A stretch of 64,000 bases of DNA, taken from NCBI GenBank assembly GCA_965248265.1, contig CBDFJF010000001.1:2368001-2432000 (forward strand), given 5' to 3'. The notes below the pieces were generated by a model, which had not been told where the DNA came from, made no database searches, and was given only the letters and a program-made list of their open reading frames with translations. Source of the DNA: Candidatus Latescibacterota bacterium. GTDB lineage: Bacteria > Latescibacterota > UBA2968 > UBA8231. Position numbers and translations under genes: made by a program. This document shows, in pieces, positions 937 to 32,511 of the stretch. Within the stretch, counting starts at the first letter, position 1; each line of letters begins with the position of its first letter.

Positions 937-2823
937 CTATTTGACTTTACAGCTTTGCAGCTCGCGCGTGGCCAATCGGATACCGCTTGCCTTGAGTCCT
1001 CGCACGGGATAGTCGGCAATGTCAAACTCTTCGTGCAGTACACGCACGCGGGGCTTGGGTTTGTAGTCCACGCTGATGGTGGCGACCGGATCCGTGGACA
1101 GCTTCAGCAACGTACAGCCGTCGGGAACCAGCGAGTACATCCGGTTCAGGATGAACTTGTCGATGCGGCAGCGTTTGATGTAGCCGAAGCCCTTGGAATC
1201 CTTGTAGAGCGCGCCGAATACCAGGTCCTTGTCGACGAATCCACAATGGAGCATGCCCTTGCCCACGAACAGTTTGTCGGGCACATCGACGACCGAGTAG
1301 GAGCCGTCCTTGCGGATCACGAGCACCCGGTCGTAGGGCGAAACCAGGGCCTGCGTGACGCCGTCAACGGCATGACCGAGGTACCCCGAACTCTTGTCGT
1401 AGGCCAGCTTCAGATCCCTCTTAGCGGCATCCCTGACGTCGACCTTCTCGAAGCGGACAATTTCCGTGCGCCGCGGAAACTGTGAGCCGTATTGGTCGAT
1501 GAGCTTTTCCAGAAAGGCGATGCTGTACGGAATTATCGCCTTGAGGTCTTTGGCGATCTGCGCGAGCCGCTGGCGGATCTCCTTCAATTCCTGCTTGGCT
1601 TTGTTGATGTCGTATAGAGAAATGCGGCGGATGGGAATCTTCAGCAAGGTGTCGACGTCGTCGCGGGTGATCTCGCTTTTCAGTTTGATGGCATGTGGAG
1701 CCAACCCGGTCAGGACAGCATCGACGACGGCCTCAGCCGACTTCTTGTCCTCTATCTCCTTGTAGATCCTGTTCTCGATAAAAATCTGTTCCAGCGTCTT
1801 GGCGTGTTGGCGAGCCTTGAGCTTGTCGGCTTCGACCCGCAGCTCGGCCGTGAGCACGTCCACCAGTCGATCGACACCGTGCTCGACCACCTCGGGAACC
1901 GTCATCACACGCGGCGCATCGCCCGCGATTACCAGCAGGTTCAACGACAGCGAGACTTCACAATCGGTGAAGGCGTAGAGGGCATCGACGACTTCCTCGG
2001 CGTACACCCCGCGCGCGAGCTTGAGATCAATCTCGACTTGCTCGGCCGTGAAATCCTCGATCGTCGATACCTTGACCTTGCCCTTACGCGCCGCGTCTTC
2101 GATCGAAGCGATCAGTGACTCTGACGTGGTCGCGAACGGTATCTCGCGGATGACGATCCGCTTCGGGTCGGAGATGTCCAGCCGCGCTCGCACGTGGACC
2201 TTGCCGTTGCCTTCGCGGTACTCGGATACATCCACCAGGCCCGCCGTCGGAAAATCCGGGAACACCTCGAAGGGCTGATCCTTCATGTAGGCGATCTGAG
2301 CTTGCAGCAACTCGGTGAGATTGTGAGGCAGGATGCGCGTCGACATGCCGACGGCGATGCCTTCGGCCCCCTGGGTCAGCAGTACGGGTATCTTTGCCGG
2401 GAACAGGACCGGCTCATCGTTGCGGCCGTCGTAAGATGGCAGGTACTCGGTGATTTCCGGGTCGAAGAGGACTTCACGCGCCAGCGGCGTCAGGCGGCAC
2501 TCGATGTAGCGGGCCGCTGAAGCCTCGTCGCCGGTAAAAATGTTGCCGAAGTTGCCCTGTTTCTCAATCAGCAAATCCTTGTTCGCCAGCACGACCAGAG
2601 CTGAGTAAATCGATTGATCCCCATGCGGATGGTACTTCATCGTCTGACCGACGACATTGGCCACCTTGTGAAACTTGCCATCGTCGATCTCAGAGAGGGC
2701 ATGTAGAATTCGACGCTGGACCGGCTTGAGGCCGTCATTCACGTGCGGGATGGCCCGGTCTTTGATTACGTAAGAGGCATATTCGACGAAGTTAGTCTTG
2801 TATAGACTGTCCAGGTAAGCCAT
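937..2823 (-). CDS. parC: DNA topoisomerase IV subunit A (short GyrA/ParC family)
   Basis: DGLKPVQRRIL, YHPHGD and catalytic AARY motifs; 628 aa with no GyrA-box CTD. Confidence 0.85.
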   Translation of the reverse strand: MAYLDSLYKTNFVEYASYVIKDRAIPHVNDGLKPVQRRILHALSEIDDGKFHKVANVVGQTMKYHPHGDQSIYSALVVLANKDLLIEKQGNFGNIFTGDEASAARYIECRLTPLAREVLFDPEITEYLPSYDGRNDEPVLFPAKIPVLLTQGAEGIAVGMSTRILPHNLTELLQAQIAYMKDQPFEVFPDFPTAGLVDVSEYREGNGKVHVRARLDISDPKRIVIREIPFATTSESLIASIEDAARKGKVKVSTIEDFTAEQVEIDLKLARGVYAEEVVDALYAFTDCEVSLSLNLLVIAGDAPRVMTVPEVVEHGVDRLVDVLTAELRVEADKLKARQHAKTLEQIFIENRIYKEIEDKKSAEAVVDAVLTGLAPHAIKLKSEITRDDVDTLLKIPIRRISLYDINKAKQELKEIRQRLAQIAKDLKAIIPYSIAFLEKLIDQYGSQFPRRTEIVRFEKVDVRDAAKRDLKLAYDKSSGYLGHAVDGVTQALVSPYDRVLVIRKDGSYSVVDVPDKLFVGKGMLHCGFVDKDLVFGALYKDSKGFGYIKRCRIDKFILNRMYSLVPDGCTLLKLSTDPVATISVDYKPKPRVRVLHEEFDIADYPVRGLKASGIRLATRELQSCKVK

Positions 2824-18462: not shown

Positions 18463-18595
18463 TGCCACACAAAGCCTCAACTGAATGATCTACCGTTCGC
18501 GAGCCATCGGTGAGCACCGTAGGTTATCACCCTCACCCGGCACTTGGCAATGGTACGTAAACGGCCTGCCGAAACAAGGATGGAGCCCGACAAGA

Positions 18596-19903
18596 ATGGA
18601 CAATGACCGCGCCTTTGAAATGGCCACCTCCAACATCCGGTTTGGTCCGGGAATCACGGGCGAAGTCGGCATGGATCTCAAGGACATGGACCTGAATCGG
18701 GTCATCGTTTTCGCCGATCCGGCCTTGGCCGATCCGGCTCTAGCCGATCCGGCGCAAGCCGATCCGGCGCCGATGTCCCTGCTGCTGGAATCCCTCGAAT
18801 CGAATGACATCGCGCATACAGTATTCGACCGTATCAGCGTCGAACCCACGGACGCATCCTTCGCCGATGCGATCTCCTTCGCCCGGGGAGAACGCTACGA
18901 CGCCGTCGTCGCCCTGGGAGGCGGATCCACCATGGACACGGCAAAGGCGGCCAATCTCTACACCTCGCATCCGGCGGACTTTCTCGATTATGTCAACGCC
19001 CCGATAGGCAAGGGCCGGCCGGTACCGGGTCCACTCAAGCCGATGATCGCCATCCCCACGACCGCTGGTACCGGCAGCGAGACGACCGGCGTGGCCATTT
19101 TCGATTTCAAGGAGATGAAGGCGAAGACGGGTATCGCCCATCGCCGTCTGAAGCCGACCCTGGCCATCGTCGATCCGGACAACACGAGAACACTGCCTCC
19201 GGCTGTGGCCGCGTCCACCGGGTTGGATGTCCTCAGTCACGCCCTGGAGTCGTACACGGCCATGCCGTACGATCGACGACCACATCCCGACAGGCCAATC
19301 CTGCGACCGGCTTACCAGGGGTCCAACCCGATCAGCGACCTGTGGTCTCTCGAAGCCCTGCGTATGGTCGCCGAGTACCTGCCGCGTGCTGTCGCTGACA
19401 CGGGAGACGACGAGGCTCGGGGAAAGATGCTGTTGGCCGCCGCTTACGCCGGCATGGGATTTGGCAACGCGGGCGTGCATTTACCGCACGGCATGTCCTA
19501 CCCCGTCGCGGGCATGGTCGAGAGCTACATGCCACCGGGTTACACCGTCGACCACCCCGTGGTCCCGCACGGAACCTCCGTCATCGTCAACGCGCCTGCC
19601 GTCTTCCGCTTCACGGCTCCCTCATGTCCCGAGCGCCATCTCAAGGCGGCACAGATCCTGGGCGCCGATATCGCCGGGACCGACTCAGCATCGGCTGGTG
19701 AAGCGCTTGCCGAGTGTCTGATCGACTACATGCGTCGATTGAACATGCCGAACGGATTGAACGCATTGGGGTATTCGTCATCCGATATTCCGGCGCTGGT
19801 GCAAGGTACCTTGCCGCAGCACCGGGTGACGAAACTATCGCCGCGTCCGGCGGACGAGGATGACCTTACTTCTCTGTTCAAAGATGCCCTGACCTACTGG
19901 TAG
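18596..19903 (+). CDS. Hydroxyacid-oxoacid transhydrogenase (ADHFE1/HOT-like iron-containing ADH)
   Basis: GGGSTMDTAKAANLY, DYVNAPIGKG, PTTAGTGSETTG, RPAYQGSNP, GVHLPHGMSYPV, VQGTLPQHRVTKL. Confidence 0.88.
   Translation: MDNDRAFEMATSNIRFGPGITGEVGMDLKDMDLNRVIVFADPALADPALADPAQADPAPMSLLLESLESNDIAHTVFDRISVEPTDASFADAISFARGERYDAVVALGGGSTMDTAKAANLYTSHPADFLDYVNAPIGKGRPVPGPLKPMIAIPTTAGTGSETTGVAIFDFKEMKAKTGIAHRRLKPTLAIVDPDNTRTLPPAVAASTGLDVLSHALESYTAMPYDRRPHPDRPILRPAYQGSNPISDLWSLEALRMVAEYLPRAVADTGDDEARGKMLLAAAYAGMGFGNAGVHLPHGMSYPVAGMVESYMPPGYTVDHPVVPHGTSVIVNAPAVFRFTAPSCPERHLKAAQILGADIAGTDSASAGEALAECLIDYMRRLNMPNGLNALGYSSSDIPALVQGTLPQHRVTKLSPRPADEDDLTSLFKDALTYW
18713..18772 (+). repeat. In-frame tandem 4 x 15 bp (GCCGATCCGGCnnnn) encoding ADPAL-ADPAL-ADPAQ-ADPAP
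   Basis: Read directly in DNA and protein. Confidence 0.9.
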
Positions 19904-19932
19904 CAAAGCGTCCTGTCTCAGGACACTCGCTG

Positions 19933-20674
19933 TCAGGCAGCGGTGGACAGAGCAAGGCCTGCCCATCCTTCGAAAACCGCACGACCCCGTGACTGCAATT
20001 GCGCCAGATGAGTGGCCGCTGCCGCAACAATCTCAGTTCCGTCCAACCGTTCCTGCGTCAGCTCCGCGGCGCAGGTGGCAACCAGATCGCGGACGATCTT
20101 CTCGGTCACCTCCATGTGGAAAAGCGTGCCGTAGGCATTGCGTCCATGGACGAACGCCTGGCATGGGGTGATGTCGGAGGAGGCCAGTTGCACGGTGCCG
20201 GCGGGAAGTGCAAACACGTCACCGTGCCAGTGGAAAGCGGTGAAGGCACGAGTCTGGATCTCAGAACTGGCCTCCATCAACGGCGACCAGATTTCATCGG
20301 CGGCCGCCCCTTCACTCAGCGTTACCTCGTGCCAGCCGATCTCCTTGCGCTCCCCACGTCGGACATCCGAGCCCAACACCGATGCCAGCAGTTGGCTGCC
20401 CAGACAGGTTCCGAAAATCGGCGTCTCGTCCTTCAATGCCCGGTCGATGAGATGCATCTCTTCACTCAGATGCGGATGGCGAGCCTGGTCGTAAACCCCC
20501 ATCGGGCCTCCCATGACGATGAGTCCGCAGACATCACGATCCAGTCGCTTCGGCACGGGTTCGCCGTCGAAGAGACGCACGTAGCGAGAAGTTAGCCCGC
20601 AGTTGTGCAGTACCTGCTCGATCGTGCCCAGCGTTTCGCAGGCGATGTGTTGGAGAACAACAGATTTCCGACAT
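19933..20674 (-). CDS. Type 1 glutamine amidotransferase; apparent one-base frameshift just after the start
   Basis: MGGPMGV, nucleophile GTCLGSQL, WHGD, FHME. The upstream in-frame VVLQHIACETLG segment is one base out of frame with ATG 20674 (MSEI). Confidence 0.75.
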
Positions 20675-20691
20675 GGTTGAACCTGGCGGCC

Positions 20692-21753
20692 TTATCCGAC
20701 CACTACCGGCTCCGGCTCAAGAATGATACCGAAGCGCTTTTCCACCGCTTCCTGAATCATCTCGCCCAGACGCACGACGTCGGCAGCCCGCTCACCGTGG
20801 GCGACGATGGCCAGGGCATGGTTCTCGGAGATACCCGCCTGGCCGTAGCGAAAACCCTTGCCGAATCCGGAGTTTTCGACCAGCCAGGCTGCGGGAATTT
20901 TCACACGCCCACCTGACTCTGGAAACTTCGGTATCTCGGAGCTGCGGTCGCCGACTGCCTGCCAGCGTTCCTCAACCGCATCCATCGGCGGACCGAGGAT
21001 GATCGGATTCAGGAAGTAGGAACCGGCCGAGCGTGCGTTCGGATCCTGCGGGTCGAGGACCATCGATTTGGTACGTCGCAGGGCGAGGACGGCCTCGCGT
21101 ACCGCGGGCGGGGTGGCGTCGCCGGATGCCTCCATGCGCTCACGCAGTTCGGGGTAATTCAACTCCACCCCTTTGACACCCCGGCGCAATCGAAAGCACA
21201 CCTGAGTAATGATGAAGCGGTCTCGATCGGCCGTCTTGAAGCGGCTGCTGCGGTAGCTGAACCCACATTCCTCCGCGGAGAAGGTGACCTCCTCAAGGCT
21301 GTCGCGATCCAGAGCCCGCACCTCAGTGATTGTCTGTGCCACCTCCTGACCATAGGCTCCGACATTCTGGATCGGCGTCGCACCGACCAGTCCGGGAATA
21401 CCCGAGAGGCACTCAATTCCACTCAAATCCGCCGCAATGGAGTGAACGACGAAGCCGTCCCAATCCTCTCCCGCCGCCGCCTTCAGGGTCACCCGCCCTG
21501 CACCATCATCGGCTATCTGCTCGATTCCCATGAGATCGACCTTGATAACCAATCCAGGATAGGTGCCGTCGGCGAAGATGGTGTTGCTGCCTGCTCCCAG
21601 AATCTGCACGGGAAGTGACCGCTCCCCGGCCCATTCGATGGAGGCGCGCAGCTGATCGAGGGTGGAGGAGGAGGACCAGTACCGGGTGCTGCCCCCTACT
21701 CCCATGGAAGTGTGAGGAGCCAGAGGTACGTGCTCCTGAACGGTGATGTCCAT
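20692..21753 (-). CDS. murB: UDP-N-acetylenolpyruvoylglucosamine reductase
   Basis: GAGSN, GIPGLVGATPIQNVGAYG, FSYRSSRFK, SAGSYFLNP, AAWLVE, LEPEP. Confidence 0.95.
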   Translation of the reverse strand: MDITVQEHVPLAPHTSMGVGGSTRYWSSSSTLDQLRASIEWAGERSLPVQILGAGSNTIFADGTYPGLVIKVDLMGIEQIADDGAGRVTLKAAAGEDWDGFVVHSIAADLSGIECLSGIPGLVGATPIQNVGAYGQEVAQTITEVRALDRDSLEEVTFSAEECGFSYRSSRFKTADRDRFIITQVCFRLRRGVKGVELNYPELRERMEASGDATPPAVREAVLALRRTKSMVLDPQDPNARSAGSYFLNPIILGPPMDAVEERWQAVGDRSSEIPKFPESGGRVKIPAAWLVENSGFGKGFRYGQAGISENHALAIVAHGERAADVVRLGEMIQEAVEKRFGIILEPEPVVVG

Positions 21754-21921
21754 CGATTCACTTCCTCGCCGTGAATGAACGGTTTCCGCACACATACGTT
21801 GTGTCTGCACTGAGTTACTTCCTGAAGGATAACGAATGCGGCAATGGATTTCACGCATCCAGATCGTTCTCGCACGACTTCCACTGGCGGTTCCAGGCAC
21901 CGCGTGCCTATCCTCTGTTTC

Positions 21922-23274
21922 ATGCGGACGACGATCTTACCTGAACTCATCGATGACCCGGATGTGCGGATCTCCGAGGAGATGCTACGCAATTGCGTCC
22001 ACTGTGGGTTCTGTAACGCCACTTGCCCGACCTACCTGATTACCGGCAACGAATTGGAAGGTCCGCGTGGGCGTATCTACCTGATCAAGAGCATGCTGGA
22101 GGGTCGCATTCAGCCGTCCCGCCAAACGGTCGCGCACATCGACCACTGTCTGGGTTGCCTCGCGTGTGAAACCACGTGCCCGAGTTCGGTCGCCTACCGG
22201 CACCTGCTCGAGGACGCACGGCCGCGACTGGATGGCATGCAGCCGCGGACCTTCGGGGATCGCCTGTTGCGTCTGCTGCTGACCCATCTGTTGCCTTATC
22301 GGGGCCGCTTCAGACTCGCCATGCGACTGACCGTGCTCGGCAAGCTTACCGCACCCCTGTTACCGGCGAGGATGCGCAACCTGCTGTCGATGGCTCCTGC
22401 CCGGCTGCCTGCACGCTCCCGTACAACGCGTCCGGGCGTGTCCCCTGCGCAGGGCGAGAAACGGATGCGAGTCGCCCTGCTCACTGGGTGTGTTCAGCAG
22501 GTTCTGGGACCGCAGATCAACGACGCCACGGTGCGTCTGCTCAATCGCCTCGGTGCTGAAGTGGTGATTCCTCGGGAAATGGGGTGCTGTGGCGCCCTGA
22601 CCTACCACATGGGTGAACGCACCCACAGCCTGGGATTGATGAGACGCAATATCGAGGTCTGGCATGAGGAGATTGCCGGGGAAGGCCTGGACGCCATTGT
22701 CCTGAATACGTCAGGGTGCGGCACGGTGGTCCGTGACTACGACCACATCTTTCGCAACGAACCGGCCATGGCGGAAAAAGCCCGCGCCGTCGCCGAGTGC
22801 GTCAGGGATATTTCAGAGGTCGTCGCCGATCTCGGCCTTCCCGCCACGACGGACACCTCCTCCGAGCGACCCGCGAAGGTCGCTGACGGGCTGCGTGGAC
22901 GGATCGCCAGATCCGTCAAGCGACCCGTAAGGGTCGCCTATCATGATGCGTGCTCCCTGCAACACGGTCAGCGGGTGAAAGAGGCACCGCGCGTGCTGCT
23001 CGCTCAGGCAGGCTTCGAAGTCGTCGAGGTTTCGGAGGGGCATATCTGCTGTGGAAGTGCTGGAACCTTCAACATGCTCGAGCCCGATCTTGCCGCCCAG
23101 CTGGGTGCGCGCAAAGCGGATGCCGTCACTCAAACCGAGGCTGATGTGGTGGCCGCCGGCAACATCGGCTGCATGGAGCAGATCGGCGGCGGCGTGGCGA
23201 TTCCGGTCGTCCACACGGTTGAGCTGCTGGACTGGGCGACGGGCGGTCCGTGCCCTGAGGCGCTCACTCAGTAG
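21922..23274 (+). CDS. glcF: Glycolate oxidase iron-sulfur subunit GlcF-like
   Basis: CVHCGFCNATCPTY, GPRGRIYLIK, CLGCLACETTCPS, two CCG domains, NIGC. Confidence 0.88.
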   Translation: MRTTILPELIDDPDVRISEEMLRNCVHCGFCNATCPTYLITGNELEGPRGRIYLIKSMLEGRIQPSRQTVAHIDHCLGCLACETTCPSSVAYRHLLEDARPRLDGMQPRTFGDRLLRLLLTHLLPYRGRFRLAMRLTVLGKLTAPLLPARMRNLLSMAPARLPARSRTTRPGVSPAQGEKRMRVALLTGCVQQVLGPQINDATVRLLNRLGAEVVIPREMGCCGALTYHMGERTHSLGLMRRNIEVWHEEIAGEGLDAIVLNTSGCGTVVRDYDHIFRNEPAMAEKARAVAECVRDISEVVADLGLPATTDTSSERPAKVADGLRGRIARSVKRPVRVAYHDACSLQHGQRVKEAPRVLLAQAGFEVVEVSEGHICCGSAGTFNMLEPDLAAQLGARKADAVTQTEADVVAAGNIGCMEQIGGGVAIPVVHTVELLDWATGGPCPEALTQ

Positions 23275-23287
23275 GCACGCCGCGGCG

Positions 23288-23926
23288 TCAGGCAGTCTCG
23301 CGCGCGGATGCGCCGGCCTGGATAACGAGCTGTTCGAGAATCTCGTAGGGTTGCGCCCCGACCACTTCCCGACTCCCCGCCATCGCAAAGGTCGGAACAC
23401 CGGTGACTCCCTGCTGCCTGCTACGCTCCCAATCCTCGTGCACGGCGGCGCGAAAACGGCGCGTTTGAAGCGCCTCGCGACAGGCTACTGATGGCAGTCC
23501 GACTCGCTCGGCGATAGCCGCCAGATTGTCCACATCGCCAATGTTGACGTTGTCGACGAAGTATGCCCTGAAGAGTGCATCGTGGATGCGATCGCCCGTT
23601 GGCCCCTGGCCCACCGCCCACATCGCCAACTCCTGGGCCAGGAGGCTGTTATATGTCATGATACGGTCGCCGTAGGGTAGCCCCTCCACCGCCATCAGCG
23701 TCTTCATGTGAGCCTGTGCCGCCGTAATGTCGATGGGCCGGCCGGCAAACGACTGGGCCAGCGTCTGCCCTTCGGCCGGCGTCTCGGGATGCAGTGGAAA
23801 ATGGACGAAACGGACTTCGATGTGGTATGCCTGCCGCAAACGCTCAATACGCACGGTACTGAGATAGCACCACGGTCACACGTAGTCGGAATACACCTCG
23901 AGTACGGCAGGATCGGACAGGCTCAT
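23288..23926 (-). CDS. DsbA/FrnE-family thiol oxidoreductase; predicted selenoprotein (UPWC), 212 aa
   Basis: ATG 23926 overlaps the upstream stop (ATGA) and gives MSLSDPAVLEVYSDYV-TGA(23878-23876)-PWCYLST, continuing in frame into the 188-aa ORF; C-terminal GVTGVPTF and GAQP. Confidence 0.85.
23843..23863 (-). promoter_or_regulatory. Putative bacterial SECIS hairpin CUCAGUAC-CGUGC-GUAUUGAG
   Basis: 8-bp stem with one G-U pair; the loop begins 21 nt after the UGA and has G then U at positions 2-3. Confidence 0.7.
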
Positions 23927-24697
23927 TCGCCCCTCGGATCAGCCCGCAGAGATTCCAGATTGTCTTTGAGCACAGCCATCCCATAATTCAATACGCTGCC
24001 GACATTGAGCATCTGATATCCCCAGCGGATTTTCTCCTGGATCTCGGGGACCTCACCCAGTGTGGTCGCCGCCACGATGCCCGTCCCTTCCAGGCGCCGG
24101 GGTACATCCTGCATGATCTCCTGCACCTCTTTGCATCCGGTCTGCGTCGCTTTGCCGAGTGAGGCGGACAGATCCATCGGCCACCATGATGACGTCGATG
24201 CCCTCCACCTTCACGATTTCGTCCAGATTCTCGTACGCCGTGACGCTCTCCATCTGCACGATCAGCACAGTCTCTTCATTCGCCGTGACGATGACGTGCT
24301 CGAAATCCTCTCCGACGATGATCTGCCAATTCGGAGAGATTCCGCGGTTACCCAAGGGTGGATAGCGCGCGTAGTCCACCGCCCGTGCCACAGCGTCTGC
24401 GTCATCCACCTGCGGCACCATCACAGCGACGGCGCCGGCATCATAGGTCTTCTTTATCAATGCCGGATCGTTCCAGGGTACCCGCACCACTGGCGCCACG
24501 CCGCGCAGACGCATGATCGCACATGCACCCGGGAGCGCTTCGGTGCCAAAGGGCTGATGTTCGGTGTCGATCCAGATGAAATCAGGTTTCGCACTGGCGA
24601 TGGCGCCGACCAGGTGCAGTGACGGACCGACGACGACGCCCGAGCCGAGGACGATCTCTCCACTCTTGAGCTTGCCCTTCAGCGGATTCGGGTACAT
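23923..24697 (-). pseudogene. HpcH/HpaI aldolase family, frameshifted near 24180 (true pseudogene or sequence error)
   Basis: DFIWIDTEH, DAGAVAVMVPQV, YPPLGNRG, QMES. The expected GPxDLSASLG motif is split across frames at GTG G CCG ATG GAT CTG. Confidence 0.75.
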
Positions 24698-24769
24698 GGA
24701 TATCTCCGTAGTGTTGATTGAGTATGGGATTGACGGATGAGAGGGACTACTAACAACCAGCGGCGCCGC

Positions 24770-25330
24770 TCACAGGACCAGCTCGATCTGACTGAGACTC
24801 TTCTTGTCCAGGTCCCTGAGATTGGCGATCTCGAAGCGGTTGCCGTCCACATCGACGAGCAGTAAGCGAAAATCGCCCAACCACTGCGCATTTTCGGTCA
24901 CGTTCTGGACGACGAACTCCCTCCGCCCACGATCCGTGCTCACATCCCAGTAAGAAGTCCCGAACTCCATACGGACTGAGTCGACGCGTTGGACCAGAGA
25001 GGTCAAATAACGGCGGTCGAGCTCCTCCGCTATGATCGTTTGAACCTCATCGTCGAGTATGGTTGGATCGGAGATGAGGCAGACTTCCTCGTCCTTGGCA
25101 TCGAGCAGACTGATATGGGTGTCGGGATGGGTCAGCGGGGCTGCCCGCACGATTTTCACCTTGGTGTAGGAACGGTCCCCATCGATGGTGAGCCGAAGCT
25201 GCCACGCCGGCTCACGGAAGAGACGGATGTCTCCGATTTCGACGGTCTCGGGATGAGTGACCGTGATCGGTGTCACCGCCAACCCGTCGGGCTTGCCGTT
25301 CTCCTTCGTCTTGTTGAGTTCCTCAGTCAT
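24770..25330 (-). CDS. DUF1854-like protein
   Basis: VRAAPLTHPD, EELDRRY, YWDVSTDRG, DVDGNRFEI; lies downstream of the ABC pair. Confidence 0.75.
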   Translation of the reverse strand: MTEELNKTKENGKPDGLAVTPITVTHPETVEIGDIRLFREPAWQLRLTIDGDRSYTKVKIVRAAPLTHPDTHISLLDAKDEEVCLISDPTILDDEVQTIIAEELDRRYLTSLVQRVDSVRMEFGTSYWDVSTDRGRREFVVQNVTENAQWLGDFRLLLVDVDGNRFEIANLRDLDKKSLSQIELVL

Positions 25331-25354: not shown

Positions 25355-27679
25355 TCAGCCACTGACCGCCATAATCGACGACGACTCCTGCTGGGTCATT
25401 ACCAGCTTGTAGAAGAACCCCTTGCGTTCCATCAGCTCCTCATGGGTACCGACCTCCGCCACCTTACCGTCATCGAGGACGACGAGGCGATCGGCACTCC
25501 TCAATGTCGACAATCGGTGCGCGATGGCAAAAGTCGTCCTGCCCTTCACCAGGCGGGCGATCGCCTGCTGGATCTTGGCCTCCGTTGGTGTGTCAAGGGA
25601 GGAGGTCGCCTCGTCTAGAATGAGAATCTTCGGATCGTGCAGGATCGCGCGGGCGATCGCGAGGCGCTGCTTCTCCCCGCCCGAGAGTTTGTCACCGCTT
25701 TCGCCGACGACCATGTCATAGCCCTCCGGCTTGGTGATGATGAACTCGTGGGCGTTGGCCGCCTTGGAAGCACGGAGCACATCCTCGAAGGTAGCTCCCG
25801 GTTTTCCATAGCTGATATTCTCGGCAATCGTCGAATTGAACAAAAAAGACTGCTGCGCCACGAGCCCCGTTTGCCGGCGCAGATCTTCCAGACGCAGATC
25901 GCGGATGTCGACCCCGTCTATCTGGAGGCTGCCGCGAGTCACATCATAAAATCGGGTGATCAGATTGATCATCGTCGTCTTACCCACCCCCGACTTGCCC
26001 ACCAGGCCAATCATCTCTCCCGGTTTGACTGCCAGATCTACGTCCTTGAGTACGGGCTTGCCTGAGTCGTACCCGAAGGAGGCATTACGGAATGTAACGG
26101 CGCCCTGGATGTCCGGGATCGGCACGGCGTCGGGATCCTCGAAGGGCTCCGTATTGGTGTCGATGACCTCGAAAATGCGCTCGGCACCAGCGTAAGCCCG
26201 CAACATGAAGCCGTAAAAATCGCCGAACCATTTCAGGGGTTGATACAACATCCACAGCAGCATGATGAACAGCATCAGATCACCCACCTGGAACGCGTCC
26301 GGGTGGTCGAACTCGTGGATGACCTGACTGCCGCCGAAGTACCAAACCAGGAAGACACCGCAACTCATGATGAAATTGGTAACCAGGAAGAACACGAGCC
26401 AGCTGCGCTCGGATGATACGCTGATGTTTCTGAGGTCGGTGTTGCGACGCTCGAATCGCTCTCCCTCGCGTCGTTCCTGCGCGAACGCTTTGACCACCCG
26501 GATGCCGCGAATCGACTCATTGATGTGGGAGGACAGACGCGACCACTTGGCCGACCAGCGTTGCCAGTAGGAGCCCATCCGCTTCCAGATCAGGCTGCTC
26601 ACGAGGACGATCGGCGGCACCGGCAGCAACACCAGCAGGGCGAGCTGCCAGCTGTTGTAGAACATCAAACCCAGGATACCCACCACCGTCATCGCGTTGA
26701 CGATGACGTAGGGCATATCGAAGATGATGTACGTCTCGACCAGATCGGAATCATTCGACATCCTGGAGATCAGCGAACCGACCTTGCGCTTGTCGTGATA
26801 GCGCAACGGCACATGGTGCATGGCCGTGTAGAGATCGACACGCATTTGCTCCACGGCCCGCAAACCGATGATGGATTGCAGCCAGCGCCGCAAGATCCAG
26901 GCGCCCCAACCGAAGAGATTTGCTCCTAGAGCGATCAGGACGTAGGTCAACAGCAGGGAGAGAGATTCATCGCCATCGGGTGTGGCGGGGGACGGATCGA
27001 TCGCCGGGTCGGCCGCTGCTTTCCAGTACCCGTCCCAGCCCACGAGTACATCGTTGATGATGTGCTTGGTGATGTAGGGTGGCACCAGATCAGTCAGCAC
27101 TTCAGCGATCATGATCAGGATCAGCACCGCCAGCTTGGTGCGATACGTCATCATGTAGCCGATCAACCGGCGCAGCGTGTCCAGCTTGTTCACGCAGGCG
27201 GGGCAAATACCGTCTTTTTCCGGCAACGCTCGATTGCAGGTCTCGCAACGGGTGCGCTCGACTTGCGTCGGCAGGACCATCTCGTCTCCGCGAGACAGCC
27301 GCTGAATGGCTTCCGCCACCTCCGTGAATTTCTGCGCCAGCGAACTGGAGTAGTACAGATGCCGTGATTCCGACCCGTCCGAGCGATCGACCTCGAGCCG
27401 CCCACCACCGACAAGGGCCTCGACACGCGCCTCGCGCACATCGGCCAGAGGCACTGGCGTTGTCTGGTCCGTTCCGTTGGCCGCCACGAACAGCAGCTGG
27501 CGGTCGGTGACGACGAACCAGCGTTCGTCGAAACGCGACATGTCCGCCATGTCGGTGGCGACGCGGATGAGTACGGTCTCGTCGGCGGCTACGTGCCCGG
27601 AGATCGCCCGTTCTACGTCGTCAGGGGGCGCTTCGATGAACGGATGTGGTGCGTCGATGGTTTCCCCCGAGGTGTCCAT
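25355..27679 (-). CDS. ABC transporter, fused permease/ATPase (exporter type) with an N-terminal extension and CxxC...CPAC zinc ribbon
   Basis: GKSGVGKT, LSGGEKQR, ILDEATSSLD; multiple TM segments; TGATG coupling to the upstream paralog. Confidence 0.92.
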   Translation of the reverse strand: MDTSGETIDAPHPFIEAPPDDVERAISGHVAADETVLIRVATDMADMSRFDERWFVVTDRQLLFVAANGTDQTTPVPLADVREARVEALVGGGRLEVDRSDGSESRHLYYSSSLAQKFTEVAEAIQRLSRGDEMVLPTQVERTRCETCNRALPEKDGICPACVNKLDTLRRLIGYMMTYRTKLAVLILIMIAEVLTDLVPPYITKHIINDVLVGWDGYWKAAADPAIDPSPATPDGDESLSLLLTYVLIALGANLFGWGAWILRRWLQSIIGLRAVEQMRVDLYTAMHHVPLRYHDKRKVGSLISRMSNDSDLVETYIIFDMPYVIVNAMTVVGILGLMFYNSWQLALLVLLPVPPIVLVSSLIWKRMGSYWQRWSAKWSRLSSHINESIRGIRVVKAFAQERREGERFERRNTDLRNISVSSERSWLVFFLVTNFIMSCGVFLVWYFGGSQVIHEFDHPDAFQVGDLMLFIMLLWMLYQPLKWFGDFYGFMLRAYAGAERIFEVIDTNTEPFEDPDAVPIPDIQGAVTFRNASFGYDSGKPVLKDVDLAVKPGEMIGLVGKSGVGKTTMINLITRFYDVTRGSLQIDGVDIRDLRLEDLRRQTGLVAQQSFLFNSTIAENISYGKPGATFEDVLRASKAANAHEFIITKPEGYDMVVGESGDKLSGGEKQRLAIARAILHDPKILILDEATSSLDTPTEAKIQQAIARLVKGRTTFAIAHRLSTLRSADRLVVLDDGKVAEVGTHEELMERKGFFYKLVMTQQESSSIMAVSG

Positions 27680-29949
27680 CACTCCCCGACTGCGATAATT
27701 CTGGAGGCTTCACGCTGCAGGTTGACGAGTTCGTAAAACGCCCCTTTGCGCTCCATCAACTCCTCGTGCGTGCCGACCTCGATCACCCGTCCGCCGTCGA
27801 GAACCATCAGTCGATCTGCGTGCCTCAACGTCGACAAGCGGTGCGAGACCGCGAAGGTGGTTCGACCTTCGACCATGCGACCGATCGCTTCCTGGATCTG
27901 CTTTTCCGTTTCCACGTCGACGGAAGAGGTCGCTTCATCCAGAATGAGAATACGCGGATTGTGCAGCATGGCCCTGGCGATGGCCACTCTCTGGCGCTCG
28001 CCTCCAGAAAGACTATTGCCTTGCTCGCCAACCTGCGTCTCATAGCCGTCCGGTTTGGCGATGATGAAGTTGTGCGCGTTGGCCAATCGCGCCGCATCGA
28101 TGATCTCCTCAAAACGCGCATCCGGATTACCGTACCCGATGTTCTCAGCAATAGTCCCGCTGAAGAGAACCGGTTCCTGCAGCACGATGCCGATTTGACG
28201 CCGTAGATCCCTCAGTTTTATCCGGCGCAGATCCACCCCGTCAATGGAGATGCTTCCGTGATCGACATCGTAGAAACGGGCTATGAGATTGATCGTCGTC
28301 GTCTTGCCCACGCCCGAGCGGCCGACGAGACCGATCATCTCGCCGGGGCGGACATCGATGTTGACATCGTGCAGGACAGGTTTGCTCTTGTCGTAGCCGA
28401 AGGTTACATGCTCGAAGGTGACGCGGCCCTCCATCCTGGGCATGCGCACGGCATTCGGATCCTCGTACGCTTCAGGCTCGGTATCGATGACTTCAAAGAT
28501 GCGCTCGGCTCCGGCGAAGGCGCGCGTGATCCATGAGTTGACCTGGCCGAACCATTCCAGCGGACCGTATACCATCCACATGTAAGCGAGAATCTGCACC
28601 AGCATGCCGAGGGTGAGCTCACCCTCCATGACTTCCTGACCGCCAAAGAACCAGACGATCAGCACACCCATGCCGGTGAGCAGCGTGATCGTCGAAAAGA
28701 AAATCGTGCGGTTGACGTTGGTGGCGATGCCGGCGTCGTTGGCTTCCGTGTTCACCTTCATGAAGGTGCCGATCTCGCGCTTCTCTTGGGCGAAGGCCTT
28801 GACGACCCGGACCCCGGCGAGTGATTCGGCAGTGCGGTCAGTCAGCTGTGACCATTTCTCATTCCATTTCTTGAACAGGCGGTGCATCCGTTTCCAGAAG
28901 ACGCCGCCCCACAGCAGCAGCGGTGGAATCGGAATCAGCGTCAGGAGGGTCAATTCCCAACTCGTCCACAGCATGAACGCCAGAATGCCGATGATCATCA
29001 GTCCGTTGATGATCAGATAGGGCAAACCGTCGACGATGAATTCCTGCAACCCGCCCGTGTCACGCGTCACCCTCGACATCAGCGCGCCGACGCGCCGCTT
29101 GTCATAGAACTGGAGCGACAACCGCTCCATCTGCTGGTACAGCTCGCTCCGGATATCCGCAGTAGCATGCGCGCCCAGCCAGGTAACTACCCACCCGTGC
29201 ACCCACTCCGCCCCCCAGGCCAACACACGAACGCCGATCAGGCCGAGGACGAGAATCCCCAGAAGCCGCAAGCGCTCGTCAACTGGCCCTTTGTCAAGCA
29301 GAGCATCGTCGATGATGAGCCTGGTCAAGTACGGCGGCATCAATTCGGCGCCCGTCGTCGCCAGCGACGATACCGCCAGGATGACAGCACGCACTCGATA
29401 CGGCGCCATATAGCTGCAGATGCGCTTCAGCGTCGTCCAGCGCTTGATGCAAGCAGGGCAGATACCGTTTTTCTCAGGCAGCAGCCGATTGCATTTCTCG
29501 CATCGGATTCGATCCAGCTCGGGGTTGATGAAGAAATTCTCCCCCTTGCGCAACTGTTCCAGACCGCGAGCCACCTCCGAGAACTTCGGCCCCATCGTAC
29601 CGGAGTACGGCACGATCACTGTCGGCTCTCCGAACCGTTCGATCTCCAGTTGGCCACCACCGACCAGCGGTTCCGTGCGGATCACGCGCATTCGCGACAC
29701 CGGGATGTCCGTCTCATCCAGTGCGCCATTTCGCTGACCGAGCACGACTGCCCGCTTTGGCGTCACCACCACCCATTGCTCTCCCTCGAAGCGCCGATCG
29801 GCACTCAGGTCTGAGCGCACCTGGATTAGCACGTCTTCTCCAGGTTGCAGCACTCCCCGGAGGCGCTCTTCCACGGAGCCCTCGGCCCGTTCCAGAAGCG
29901 CATGCGAAGATGCCTTCGCCGGCGCCTGACGATGCGGTGATGTCGTCAA
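27679..29949 (-). CDS. ABC transporter, fused permease/ATPase, paralog of the downstream gene
   Basis: GRSGVGKT, LSGGERQR, ILDEATSSVD; CEKC...CPAC. Confidence 0.92.
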   Translation of the reverse strand: MTTSPHRQAPAKASSHALLERAEGSVEERLRGVLQPGEDVLIQVRSDLSADRRFEGEQWVVVTPKRAVVLGQRNGALDETDIPVSRMRVIRTEPLVGGGQLEIERFGEPTVIVPYSGTMGPKFSEVARGLEQLRKGENFFINPELDRIRCEKCNRLLPEKNGICPACIKRWTTLKRICSYMAPYRVRAVILAVSSLATTGAELMPPYLTRLIIDDALLDKGPVDERLRLLGILVLGLIGVRVLAWGAEWVHGWVVTWLGAHATADIRSELYQQMERLSLQFYDKRRVGALMSRVTRDTGGLQEFIVDGLPYLIINGLMIIGILAFMLWTSWELTLLTLIPIPPLLLWGGVFWKRMHRLFKKWNEKWSQLTDRTAESLAGVRVVKAFAQEKREIGTFMKVNTEANDAGIATNVNRTIFFSTITLLTGMGVLIVWFFGGQEVMEGELTLGMLVQILAYMWMVYGPLEWFGQVNSWITRAFAGAERIFEVIDTEPEAYEDPNAVRMPRMEGRVTFEHVTFGYDKSKPVLHDVNIDVRPGEMIGLVGRSGVGKTTTINLIARFYDVDHGSISIDGVDLRRIKLRDLRRQIGIVLQEPVLFSGTIAENIGYGNPDARFEEIIDAARLANAHNFIIAKPDGYETQVGEQGNSLSGGERQRVAIARAMLHNPRILILDEATSSVDVETEKQIQEAIGRMVEGRTTFAVSHRLSTLRHADRLMVLDGGRVIEVGTHEELMERKGAFYELVNLQREASRIIAVGE

Positions 29950-30027: not shown

Positions 30028-30279
30028 TCAAAGTATCGACTCCAGTGTCTCCTCAAGGTCCAGCGTCTCCTCGAGGTCCAGTATCTCCTCGACCTCTGGA
30101 CTCCGCGACCTGGCCTGCTCACGCCGCCGGCGTTGTCGGGCGAATGGGGTCTCGATTCCGTAGAGGCGACAGAGGCGGCCGAAGGTGCCACCGGCAATAC
30201 CCAGGGCCCTGCTGGCCTCCTGGTTGCTGGCATAGACACGAGCAGCCCGCTCGATCCAGTCCTGCGGTATTTTCTGCAT
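30028..30279 (-). CDS. Small stand-alone Fis-like helix-turn-helix protein (83 aa) with an acidic repeat tail
   Basis: SD-like GAGGAAGAGGG before ATG 30279; SNQEASRALGIAGGTFGRLCRLYGI fits the Fis HTH pattern; LDLEET occurs twice. Confidence 0.7.
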   Translation of the reverse strand: MQKIPQDWIERAARVYASNQEASRALGIAGGTFGRLCRLYGIETPFARQRRRREQARSRSPEVEEILDLEETLDLEETLESIL

Positions 30280-30334
30280 GGTCCCTCTTCCTCGTTTGTG
30301 TTGCCACGTCCACTCGCGGCAACCGGTGATGCAC

Positions 30335-30389
30335 AAAAAAATGGCTGCGGTCCTCCGGATTTTTCTCTTCCTCCGCAGGCCCGCAGCCA
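30335..30389 (-). terminator. Intrinsic terminator-like hairpin 2 (TGGCTGCGG...CCGCAGCCA + T7)
   Basis: 9-bp perfect base stem with inner pairing, followed by 7 T on the minus strand. Confidence 0.7.
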
Positions 30390-30423
30390 AAAAAAAACCG
30401 TAGGGAATCGCTCCCTACGGTTT
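30389..30423 (-). terminator. Intrinsic terminator hairpin 1 (CCGTAGGGA-GCGAT-TCCCTACGG + T9)
   Basis: Perfect 9-bp stem (12 bp with AAA/TTT) followed by 9 T. Confidence 0.85.
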
Positions 30424-30747
30424 GAGTGTCTCAGTTGTGAGTTCTCTCAACCTCCGGGATCCCCCGTCGCTGCGGGCCTCATTTCGGGCTTATGGCTTAC
30501 CGAGTTAATCTTCATCGCCCGTGGCGCGTTCGCGGCGCTTTGGGCATTAAGCCCCATCCGATTTGCCGTCATCTGCTCAAAATCACACCGGCCGCACCAG
30601 CTCATACGCGGACCGGTCTGCCTGGCAGAGACATCGGATTGTTTGACGTTGTCTATCCTCATCGCTTTTACGGGTTTTCGCCGTCGGTTTAGAGGTTGCA
30701 TCAATTCATCTGGCGGAAGCGATCGATGTTCGCTATCGCTCACCAGC
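30424..30747 (-). ncRNA. Candidate structured non-coding RNA or long regulatory leader, family not recognised
   Basis: Four or more hand-identified stem domains lying between a TTGACA element (30777-30772) and the terminators. Confidence 0.45.
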
Positions 30748-30884
30748 TAACTAACCGGCCGCACCTAACAATGTCAAGAGGTAAAATGAGCATCCATCCA
30801 TTTCTTTTCAATTTTCGCTTCTCTCCTATATTAACAGCCGGTTATGACTCCATGCAGCGCTACCAGTGATTATTGCCATGAACT

Positions 30885-31697
30885 ATGACTGAGGTCCAGC
30901 CCAAAACCGAGACGACTCGCACCCGGGTCGACATCGAGGCCGCCAACAAGCGTCTCGAAACCCTGATCCAGGAGACGGACTTCGAGGTGATGTCTCCTCA
31001 GGACCTCCTGAGCTGGGTTGGTGAAACCTTCGAGCCCTCTCATGCCGTCGTCAGCACCAGCTTTCAGTATTCCGGCATGGCAACCGTTCACATGCTGCAC
31101 GAACTGGGGTTGCATCTGCGTGTAGCCACCGTCGACACCTTCCGGCTGCATCCCGAAACCTACGCCTTCATTCGGGAAGTCGAACAGCGCTACGGAATCG
31201 AGATCGAGGTGCATCGTCCTGACGCCGCTGAAGTGGAAAGCATGATCCAGCGTTTTGGCGAATACCTGTTTTTCGATTCCAAGGCCAAACAGGAGTACTG
31301 CTGCCAGGTCCGCAAAACACGCCCCCACGACCGCTTGCTTACCACTGCCGACTGCTGGATTACCGGCCTTCGAAGGGACCAGTCTCCCGCGCGCGCGCAG
31401 ACGCCCAAGGCGATGACGGTCTCAGAGTACGGCAGCCGCCGCCAAATCATGAAGCTCAATCCGCTGGCTGATTGGACGGAGAAGCAGCTGCTCGAATACA
31501 CCGAAGCCAACAAGATTCCCGTGAATGGACTCTACGCTCAGGGGTATGAGAGTATCGGTTGCATGATTTGCTCAACCCCCACATCCGCTGGTGAGCCCCC
31601 GCGCGCGGGCCGCTGGCGCTGGTTCAACAACGATGAAGAGATGAGCCAAGAGGACCTCAAAGAGTGCGGTCTGCACGTGCCGATGTACCAGATCTGA
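30885..31697 (+). CDS. cysH: Adenylyl-/phosphoadenylyl-sulfate reductase (Fe-S APS reductase type)
   Basis: DTFRLHPETY, CCQVRK, WITGLRRDQS, YESIGCMICS, RAGRW, ECGLH. Confidence 0.92.
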   Translation: MTEVQPKTETTRTRVDIEAANKRLETLIQETDFEVMSPQDLLSWVGETFEPSHAVVSTSFQYSGMATVHMLHELGLHLRVATVDTFRLHPETYAFIREVEQRYGIEIEVHRPDAAEVESMIQRFGEYLFFDSKAKQEYCCQVRKTRPHDRLLTTADCWITGLRRDQSPARAQTPKAMTVSEYGSRRQIMKLNPLADWTEKQLLEYTEANKIPVNGLYAQGYESIGCMICSTPTSAGEPPRAGRWRWFNNDEEMSQEDLKECGLHVPMYQI

Positions 31698-31740
31698 GCC
31701 GACTCGTCTACGACTGAGCGTCCCACAGCTGCGAGATCAC

Positions 31741-32511
31741 ATGTCCTCTCCACCTCCTCACCGACTCGACCGCGAGGCCGAGTTTCACAATCAAGCGTTC
31801 ACGGAGAACACGCGGGCGTCAGCTGGCCGATTCTACTCCATCACCGATGCCAGCCAACAGCTCTACTATACGCTGATCTCGAAGGATCCGGCGAGCAACC
31901 ATGCGCTGGAATACGGCTGCGGTCGGGGGGGTTACTGTTTTGAACTCGCCCGCCGGGGCCTGTTCGTGGATGCCATCGACATATCCCCGGCCGGAGTTGA
32001 GATGGCCGCACAGAAGGCTCAAGAGGATGAACTGAGCGAGCGCCTGAGATTCCAGATCATGAATGCCGAGGACATGACCTTTCCGGACGATCATTTCGAC
32101 GTCGTCTTCGGCAAGAGCATCCTGCACCACCTGGATCTGGTCCGGGGCCTGCGGGAAATAGCCAGAGTGCTCAAGGTTGGGGGTCGAGCTGTGTTTTTCG
32201 AACCCCTCGGACACAATGTTTTGATCAATATCTATCGCAGACTGACTCCGCGGATGCGGACGGAGGACGAACGGCCCTTACGGGTCGAAGACCTCACCGC
32301 GTTCGGCGAGTTTTTCTCCGAGATCAAGATCCATCACTTCCACCTGCTCGCATTGCTTGCGATCCCGTTCTGGAATATCCCGGGACTGTTTGGCGTCCTG
32401 GTGTCGTTTCTCGACAGGACCGACCGCCTGCTGTTCAAACTGCTTCCGTTTCTGCGAAAACAAGCCTGGATCGTCGTCGTCGAACTGACGGGACCTCGAC
32501 CGTCTGATTGA
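31741..32511 (+). CDS. Class I SAM-dependent methyltransferase
   Basis: LEYGCGRG, IDIS, FDVV...ILHH, RVLKVGG. Confidence 0.88.
   Translation: MSSPPPHRLDREAEFHNQAFTENTRASAGRFYSITDASQQLYYTLISKDPASNHALEYGCGRGGYCFELARRGLFVDAIDISPAGVEMAAQKAQEDELSERLRFQIMNAEDMTFPDDHFDVVFGKSILHHLDLVRGLREIARVLKVGGRAVFFEPLGHNVLINIYRRLTPRMRTEDERPLRVEDLTAFGEFFSEIKIHHFHLLALLAIPFWNIPGLFGVLVSFLDRTDRLLFKLLPFLRKQAWIVVVELTGPRPSD

Follow-up and report, generated by a model that had tools for sequence, protein, structure and literature searches.

A conserved leader with tandem terminators, and probably a translated reading frame, precedes an ABC exporter operon in Candidatus Latescibacterota

What is the function of a few hundred nucleotides that begin at a promoter, fold well, end in an intrinsic terminator, and match no known RNA? 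The question is raised by a locus on the minus strand of a Candidatus Latescibacterota genome (GTDB lineage Bacteria; Latescibacterota; UBA2968; UBA8231), analyzed here within a window of 64,000 nucleotides (nt) from GenBank assembly GCA_965248265.1 (contig CBDFJF010000001.1, positions 2,368,001 to 2,432,000), numbered from its first letter. Between 30777 and 30389, upstream of a small helix-turn-helix (HTH)-like gene and two ATP-binding cassette (ABC) exporter genes, an earlier sequence-only reading had placed a novel structured noncoding RNA or riboswitch-like leader, with a leaderless open reading frame (ORF) of 98 amino acids as an alternative. We conclude that the noncoding interpretation is most likely to be replaced by one in which a translated leader carries a conserved RNA switch, a variant of known regulation. 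In its specific form, to which we give a probability of roughly 55%, the locus is a ribosome-dependent attenuator of an operon with the gene order HTH, ABC, ABC, DUF1854, made up of a translated leader ORF and tandem terminators. The parts of this leader are as follows.

30772..30777, minus strand: -35 hexamer TTGACA of the leader promoter, read from the sequence; CTTGACAwTGT is kept in related loci.
30748..30753, minus strand: candidate -10 element TAGTTA, 18 nt past the -35; TAnnTT stands at the same spacing elsewhere (by eye).
30447..30743, minus strand: leader ORF at its maximal extent, from GTG at 30743, with 98 codons and TGA.
30469..30479, minus strand: segment 1 (AGGCCCGCAGC), a candidate antiterminator strand inside the ORF; 11 nt, 100% complementary to 30387-30377.
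30450..30476, minus strand: last nine codons, P-A-A-T-G-D-P-G-G, before the stop at 30449-30447; PAAxxDPGG-stop and variants occur in 11 genera.
30424..30446, minus strand: H0, a small hairpin directly past the stop, with a sequence that differs between genera.
30389..30423, minus strand: H1, the hairpin AAACCGTAGGGA / TCCCTACGGTTT with its U-tract, the T9 terminator; its 12-nt arms are 100% complementary.
30335..30389, minus strand: H2, a second intrinsic terminator, with arms at 30389-30372 and 30359-30342 followed by T7.

The first step is to establish which part of the leader is shared with other genomes. Compared by BLASTN with 41 genomes (its own and 40 relatives), the region matched two other genomes, and these over the last ~100 nt only; the body is not conserved outside the genus. 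Conservation is confined to the final ~15 codons and to the ~130 nt that follow the stop. Upstream of the best HTH copies in several genera, an open frame of varied sequence and length ends in PAAxxDPGG-stop or one of its variants and is followed by H0, H1, and H2. From 16 sequences we built a covariance model of this module (R1), which gave one full match in the window's own genome and matched 27 of the 76 genomes of the family (a scan at the level of the order covers the same 76 genomes). Two matches, in G013 and G024 (L060 and L061), are a tRNA beside a terminator and were set aside, leaving 25 genomes in 11 of 18 genera. Matches are single in each genome, except for a weak second copy in G010, and they adjoin HTH orthologues that were located independently. 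Five genomes from three other families of the class gave no match to R1, a sample so small that it shows little. Further, an exact-pattern scan of species genomes returned seven records, and a second scan, of metagenome contigs, returned 17 loci, of which 15 carry the module; the contigs L080 and L084 were set aside as false positives.

Is the variable part of the leader a reading frame? In 20 of 25 loci, the frame that leads into the conserved stop runs open for 87–217 codons; the runs are shorter in L013 (65, at a contig end), L056 (63), L057 (74), L058 (23), and L062 (56). Among the three frames, this one is the longest in 21 of the 25 loci. By hand arithmetic, a run of 87 open codons would arise by chance with a probability of ~3% at a GC content of 55%, and such runs recur in many genera. 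The stop keeps its place while its codon changes: most loci have TGA, two g9 genomes have TAA, and a third has TAG. A change of the synonymous type occurs among the last codons, which read GGC GGA in G083 and GGA GGT elsewhere, and the C-terminal motif itself appears as DPGG, SSGG, DSGG, DPKG, DPIG, or NSTG. The length of the ORF is not fixed, at 71–98 codons in the window and 46–157 codons in relatives counted from the first ATG, and the distance from promoter to stop ranges from 249 to 576 nt. A search of 1.84 billion representative proteins recovered four relatives of the ORF, all metagenomic, which align to it with in-frame indels and share ...MGLNA...P..RPAA.GDPGG. Pfam and NCBIfam assign the leader ORF to no family.

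The ORF probably starts downstream of its maximal extent. The likelier starts are ATG at 30662 (71 amino acids, MRIDNV...) and ATG at 30701 (84 amino acids); the former is kept in the closely related locus L081 and is the first residue of the metagenome proteins P0001 and P0003, and at the position of the latter L081 has GAA. Since L081 also carries a 19-nt indel right past the window's GTG at 30743, a leaderless start at that GTG is unlikely; of the 98-amino-acid alternative, the frame survives as the better reading and the proposed start probably does not. Within the ORF, dN/dS (the ratio of nonsynonymous to synonymous substitution rates) is 0.4–1.08, so that the body is near neutral; the DNA of the body is less conserved than the noncoding stretch that follows in six of 10 pairs, mostly the more divergent ones; and the indels that separate relatives include lengths not divisible by three, with the net frame kept. 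Thus, frame and end are kept while the body drifts freely. Judged from these patterns in the DNA, the ORF is probably translated.

Three hairpins follow the stop. H0 is present in all six full-length folds that we computed, with unrelated stem sequences, and is nested in a rearranged helix in L007 and L017. The T9 terminator at the end of the region, as originally described, was borne out as H1 (30423-30389); H2 (30389-30335), just beyond the coordinates given there, had no place in that account. Over 24 sequences, H1 and H2 together are 96% paired, with nine pairs changed on both sides, a level reached by none of 500 shuffles, and controls slid along the alignment are 31%–53% paired. Taken singly, H1 is 97.2% paired, with two pairs changed on both sides (UA to CG and UA to AU) and six of nine invariant, and H2 is 95.1% paired, with seven of 13 pairs changed on both sides. 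The 3′ part of the leader is a conserved, covarying RNA structure, and two intrinsic terminators with U-tracts stand between the leader ORF and the structural genes. H1 is also near-fixed in sequence across genera (CCGTAGGGA...TCCCTACGG). Its pattern occurs once in the 7.3-Mb genome, and the idea that H1 is a generic repeated terminator was rejected on that count. H2 is tandemly duplicated in L005 (G043), which has three terminators as a result.

The end of the ORF can also pair with the terminators themselves, an 11-nt complementarity that was likewise outside the earlier account. Segment 1, the stretch of the Pro-Ala-Ala codons (codons -9 to -7), can base-pair with the 5′ arm of H2. In a set of 30 distinct sequences, this helix is 89.3% paired. 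Changes on both sides are seen in four of its pairs and in 13 cells, and its covariation score of 0.124 (0.063 in shuffles) is reached by none of 500 shuffles; slid controls are at most 47.6% paired. In RNA cut before the 3′ arm of H2, this helix is part of the predicted minimum-energy fold in all six loci folded; in full-length RNA, H2 forms in all six and H1 forms as a hairpin in four. The Asp-Pro codons, for their part, pair with the 5′ arm of H1 in 93.6% of cells, three of them changed on both sides. Individual loci keep the match in different ways: the window and L081 have lost the palindrome CTGCAG (they read CCGCAG and CTGCGG) and retained complementarity; in the group of L087 and L090, G-C is flipped to C-G at two positions of the helix; and in G060, where one Ala codon is lost, CAGCTTGG pairs with CCAAGCTG, partly outside the H2 stem. 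The leader can thus be predicted to form an alternative helix that excludes H2 and has one strand where a ribosome on the leader would sit.

Transcription of the leader appears to depend on a promoter of its own. The TTGACA at 30777-30772, reported before together with a weak -10, proved to be a conserved -35 element: of the 23 loci with TTGACAwT, 22 show the arrangement TTGACA-N18-TAnnTT. The conserved CTTGACAwTGT is not present in the close relative L081. From the position of this promoter, transcription would start near 30741. That the stretch is one transcription unit, from the conserved promoter through the intrinsic terminators, is supported. A 12-mer, GGTGCGGCCGGT, had been seen both in the promoter spacer and in the body, and this observation held, with copies at 30765-30754 and at 30598-30587 and none expected in shuffles.

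30587..30598, minus strand: body copy of the 12-mer GGTGCGGCCGGT; the other copy lies at 30754-30765, in the promoter spacer.

L081 keeps the body copy and is without the promoter copy. Comparable repeats between promoter and body occur in just one other of 22 loci at a level equaled in no more than five of 200 shuffles. We therefore rejected the 12-mer as an operator or shared feature, because the promoter copy is absent from L081 and does not recur elsewhere; the pair may be a recent small duplication specific to this genome.

Past the terminators lie the genes that the attenuator would control.

30028..30279, minus strand: small HTH-like gene (83 amino acids), the first gene past the terminators, 55 nt from the H2 U-tract.
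27679-29949, minus strand: ABC exporter gene 1, which overlaps the end of ABC gene 2.
25355-27682, minus strand: ABC exporter gene 2, from the Pfam and NCBIfam scan.
24770-25330, minus strand: DUF1854 gene, last in the order HTH, ABC, ABC, DUF1854.

Of 24 genomes that carry the element, 17 have an orthologue of the first ABC gene behind it, and there is one more match, a weak one; the remaining genomes have contig ends, rearranged loci, or copy 1 of G010. Between the H2 U-tract and the start of the HTH gene lie 47 nt in L054 and about 40–55 nt in L051, L053, and L055; the distance is 74–293 nt in the other loci measured, and in G060 the gene begins 140 nt past the only T-run. A search for one promoter motif, TTGAyw-N16-19-TAnnwT, found no site in 21 spacers between H2 and the HTH gene. 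As the operon has no promoter-like site of its own by this measure, it would be made only by read-through of the leader.

From these observations we can put together a switch. A single conserved promoter would produce a transcript that opens with a variable ORF ending in PAAxxDPGG-stop and continues into H0, H1, and H2, where H1 and H2 would serve as intrinsic terminators and the exporter operon would be reached by read-through. The last ~10 codons of the ORF would compete for the 5′ arms of the hairpins, Pro-Ala-Ala for that of H2 and Asp-Pro for that of H1. Ribosomes in step with the polymerase on the end of the ORF would block this pairing, H1 and H2 would form, and the product would be an RNA of ~350–410 nt. 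If ribosomes lag or stall, the end of the ORF would pair with the emerging arms, the terminators would fail, and the exporter operon would be transcribed. The long, drifting ORF may serve as a general gauge of the speed of translation, as affected, for example, by translation inhibitors or starvation; such an ORF fits a sensor of the progress of translation rather than of one amino acid. Both the direction of the switch and its signal are ones that we infer.

Several observations weigh against this reading, and they concern each of its parts. For the promoter and transcript, the four sequencing runs that contain the locus gave DNA-like contigs of flat depth, uninformative on transcripts; the search of the downstream spacers was limited to the one motif. 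For the ORF, no clear ribosome-binding site is evident before any of the candidate starts, and the start codon is uncertain; another frame is open longer in three g18 loci (GC 0.66–0.67); the indels include lengths that are not multiples of three; and with dN/dS in the range given above, the sequence gives little proof of translation. For the terminators, five g18 genomes keep the sequence of H1 and have lost its U-tract, and the metagenome loci L082 and L088 are without H2 (L091, otherwise near-identical to these two, has it). For the alternative helix, most columns between segment 1 and H2 are near-invariant, part of the match is automatic because the CTGCAG core is palindromic, and the scoring used an alignment that had been fitted to H1 and H2. 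Moreover, this helix alone would enclose H1 without disrupting it, and the pairing that would open H1 has just 6 bp. Finally, a ribosome on the stop codon, with the usual footprint, would cover codons -5 to -1 and have segment 1 (-30 to -20) at its trailing edge, which leaves the direction of the switch unsettled.

Could the ORF instead be a separate small-protein gene that happens to lie upstream of the operon? It would then encode a fast-evolving protein with a functional C-terminus, for instance a partner or substrate of the ABC and DUF1854 proteins, H1 and H2 would end its mRNA, and the HTH and ABC genes would have a promoter of their own. Much of what we describe fits such a gene: the frame has been kept open, there are synonymous changes in the codons of the C-terminal peptide, gene callers predicted the ORF in four metagenomes, a product of 46–157 amino acids is long for a leader peptide, ABC exporters adjoin it, and tandem terminators are expected at the end of a gene. 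However, the near-neutral body (dN/dS 0.4–1.08) has no conserved domain, and the spacer to the HTH gene is about 40–55 nt in three genera, with no promoter-like site in any spacer. Nor would a plain terminator need arms that track the last codons with compensatory changes, and H1, which occurs once in the genome, retains its sequence in 11 genera. The role of a type I secretion substrate is not supported at the locus, since no membrane-fusion or outer-membrane family came up when the ORFs within 18485-25330 and those at 30885-32511 were scanned with Pfam. We regard a separate gene as unlikely.

The attenuator model, on the other hand, does not account for everything that is conserved. The retention of the H1 sequence in genomes that have lost the U-tract suggests a further role of H1, which the model does not explain, and the conserved peptide and the fixed sequence of H1 exceed what the model needs, leaving room for an arrest peptide and for protein binding at H1. 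One way to fill this room would be a combined autoregulatory switch, in which a termination-arrest peptide reads a metabolite linked to the ABC and DUF1854 proteins, H1 is bound by a protein (possibly the HTH-like product), and the terminated RNA of ~350–410 nt perhaps acts in trans. We offer this as speculation that is distinctly unlikely to be correct in full.

An arrest peptide that senses a ligand might also suffice by itself. The C-terminal W/G-x-D/S-P/S-G-G-stop, together with the Shine-Dalgarno-like GGAGG, would stall the ribosome at the stop when a small molecule is present, and this stalled ribosome, rather than the overall pace of translation, would set the fold of H0, H1, and H2, in the manner of TnaC or PepNL. 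We know of no arrest motif that matches the leader C-terminus. In favor of arrest, the peptide is conserved beyond the needs of pairing: the third base of the second Ala codon may be G, A, T, or C, and 16 of the 28 cells in its column (42:156) do not pair; GGA GGT is replaced by GGC GGA in G083. The stop stands at a fixed place directly before H0, and PepNL is an established case of a nascent peptide that arrests the ribosome at a stop codon (PMC11890864). Against it, stalling here is argued from analogy, the motif varies (six forms, as listed above), and the same nucleotides are constrained by RNA pairing, so that conservation of the peptide may be a by-product. Arrest by the peptide as the whole explanation seems to us more doubtful still.

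This leaves the noncoding RNA with which the question began. The whole region of 376 nt does fold strongly (z -4.08; none of 100 shuffles as good). When the 3′ hairpins are removed, the remaining body of 256 nt has a z of -0.78, with 45 of 200 shuffles at least as good; the score of the whole region stems from the 3′ hairpins. The four stem domains described in the body are present in the minimum-energy fold, but they are not above chance, because the body alone folds like its shuffles, and they are not conserved outside the genus. No family of Rfam 15 reaches its gathering score in the window or in 10 related loci; the best match below threshold in a permissive E-value scan, Ms1 (17.1 vs. 162 bits), aligns to the terminators only. 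ARAGORN found no tRNA or tmRNA in the region. The earlier statement that the region matches no tmRNA, RNase P, 6S, SRP, T-box, or common riboswitch was therefore sound. A riboswitch aptamer upstream of the terminators is not in evidence either, in that the region before the last ~15 codons is unconserved between genera, variable in length, and folded at chance level.

A riboswitch or other structured RNA, in which the whole ~330-nt transcript binds a ligand or protein and the ORF is incidental, is thus very improbable: it could draw on the lack of a known RNA family, the strong fold of the whole region, the conserved structure in the 3′ module, the sequence of H1 kept even where the U-tract is gone, and, as the available part of one report describes, the precedent of attenuator-derived RNAs such as rnTrpL that work in trans (PMC6614838), but the body folds at chance level and varies in sequence and length (249–576 nt from promoter to stop), no aptamer-like conserved core lies upstream of the terminators, and the open frame is retained in 20 of 25 loci. 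The ORF is the better reading because the conserved feature is an open frame that ends at a fixed stop, and this codon-patterned conservation largely overturns the noncoding interpretation. What stands of the sequence-only reading is that this is the leader of an HTH gene, that its 3′ part is a covarying structure, and that it belongs to no known family; it is not built from the four stems, which sit in the unconserved part. Taken as a whole, the earlier observation is partly confirmed and its interpretation partly supported.

A number of loci show how the leader varies. On a second contig of G010, L062 (~1501–1647, plus strand) carries a shorter copy of the module with the same type of promoter and with H0 and H1, and without H2; its ORF has 46 codons and ends in ..SMWKNSSA-stop, and an ABC exporter paralogue follows directly, with no HTH gene between. 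In L052 (G004) and L058 (G001), only the C-terminal end of an ABC gene comes after the module, and in L059 (G049) a truncated HTH gene does; these three are deletions or assembly artefacts. Two of them also have degenerate leaders, the frame of L058 being open for only 23 codons and that of L059 ending in an unrelated peptide. Most g14 species (L019–L032) have a different leader, ~100–470 nt upstream of the same HTH orthologue, in which a strong GGAGAGGAGG site is combined with an ORF of 42 codons (MILFAQ...RVRPNP-stop), a structured stretch that is conserved, and a pair of terminators; the 1.5 kb downstream of it contain no ABC gene. G060, a g14 genome, has a PAW..PGG-type module in place of this leader. 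The records L072–L078 come from genomes of this one GTDB family, and their public titles split on phylum, with Candidatus Latescibacterota in five and Gemmatimonadaceae in two.

The HTH-like gene belongs to a multicopy family, with eight copies in this genome and matches in 71 of the 76 family genomes. Its product has no match in Pfam or NCBIfam, and a sequence search of the PDB gave nothing below an E-value of 0.36. The AlphaFold model has a predicted local distance difference test score (pLDDT) above 93 over residues 10–50, and the best Foldseek matches of the model were weak (E-value at least 1.1) and mostly to DNA-binding HTH domains. The paralogues in G000 (L065–L071) lie in unrelated contexts, one of them just before an SSB-like gene. 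Upstream of another, L070, are a similar TTGACA promoter, a leader of ~200 nt, and a terminator-like hairpin before the gene; this may be another leader of the same logic. The contigs of all four sequencing runs mentioned above end at window positions 30218-30280, where the HTH gene starts; the presumable cause is that this sequence recurs in the eight paralogues. For the exporters, the best NCBIfam model is NF052233, a cyanophycin metabolism-associated ABC transporter, with 637 and 578 bits, below its cut-off of 880, and both proteins have N-terminal extensions of about 170–190 amino acids with Cys-x2-Cys...Cys-x2-Cys.

If the attenuator reading holds, an orphan-looking RNA becomes a testable regulatory device, in a lineage known only from metagenome-assembled genomes. 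It would represent a family of leader-ORF attenuators that is unusual in several ways, having an ORF that is long and drifts, a peptide conserved at its C-terminus, terminators in tandem, and an extra hairpin conserved in sequence, and it would give a hint as to when an exporter related to the cyanophycin metabolism-associated ABC transporter model is needed. There is also a lesson for genome scans, namely that a strong folding score can derive wholly from the terminators that end a small coding gene.

A literature search, partly mis-aimed by taxon and with most subscription journals outside its reach, found no paper that describes this element, and the known systems to which it can be compared are therefore relatives in logic. 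In trpL, the leader of the E. coli trp operon, antiterminator and terminator are mutually exclusive, and a ribosome at the end of the leader favors the terminator. The present leader likewise has exclusive helices, with the upstream strand in or beside a translated leader. It differs in that we found no run of regulatory codons, its ORF is several times longer and is unconserved, there are two tandem terminators and a conserved extra hairpin, and an exporter operon rather than a biosynthetic one lies downstream. TnaC acts through Rho, whereas the terminators here are intrinsic. Our leader shares with TnaC a conserved C-terminal peptide right before the stop, upstream of regulated genes. The same likeness holds for PepNL (PMC11890864). 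There is no common motif, the leaders here are much longer, and stalling is at most predicted. Sinorhizobium meliloti rnTrpL offers a further likeness, in that the available part of the report describes a terminated leader transcript that is a stable, structured small RNA with a possible role of its own (PMC6614838); for the leader described here, a role in trans may be no more than conceivable by that analogy.

By the same kind of comparison, the closest precedent appears to be bmrB-bmrCD of Bacillus subtilis. According to the available part of the study by Reilman et al. (2014) (PMC4191407), bmrBCD is controlled by ribosome-mediated attenuation: bmrB is a leader of 53 codons with a terminator inside it, and it makes the heterodimeric ABC exporter BmrCD inducible by antibiotics that target the ribosome. 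The two systems differ in several respects. The terminator of bmrB lies within the 53-codon ORF (PMC4191407, as far as the available part describes it), whereas here, with ORFs of 46–157 codons, both terminators lie past the stop and just the antiterminator strand is inside the ORF; an HTH-like gene stands between leader and exporters; and there is no sequence relation (nothing in Pfam or NCBIfam), the lineages being unrelated. What they have in common is the design. In each, a small ORF, translated in the case of bmrB, lies directly upstream of an ABC exporter pair in the same transcript, and alternative stem-loops are combined with an intrinsic terminator, with the ribosome on the leader proposed as the sensor (PMC4191407, in its available part). 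If our reading is correct, the locus would be a second, independent case of a heterodimeric ABC exporter under ribosome-mediated attenuation.

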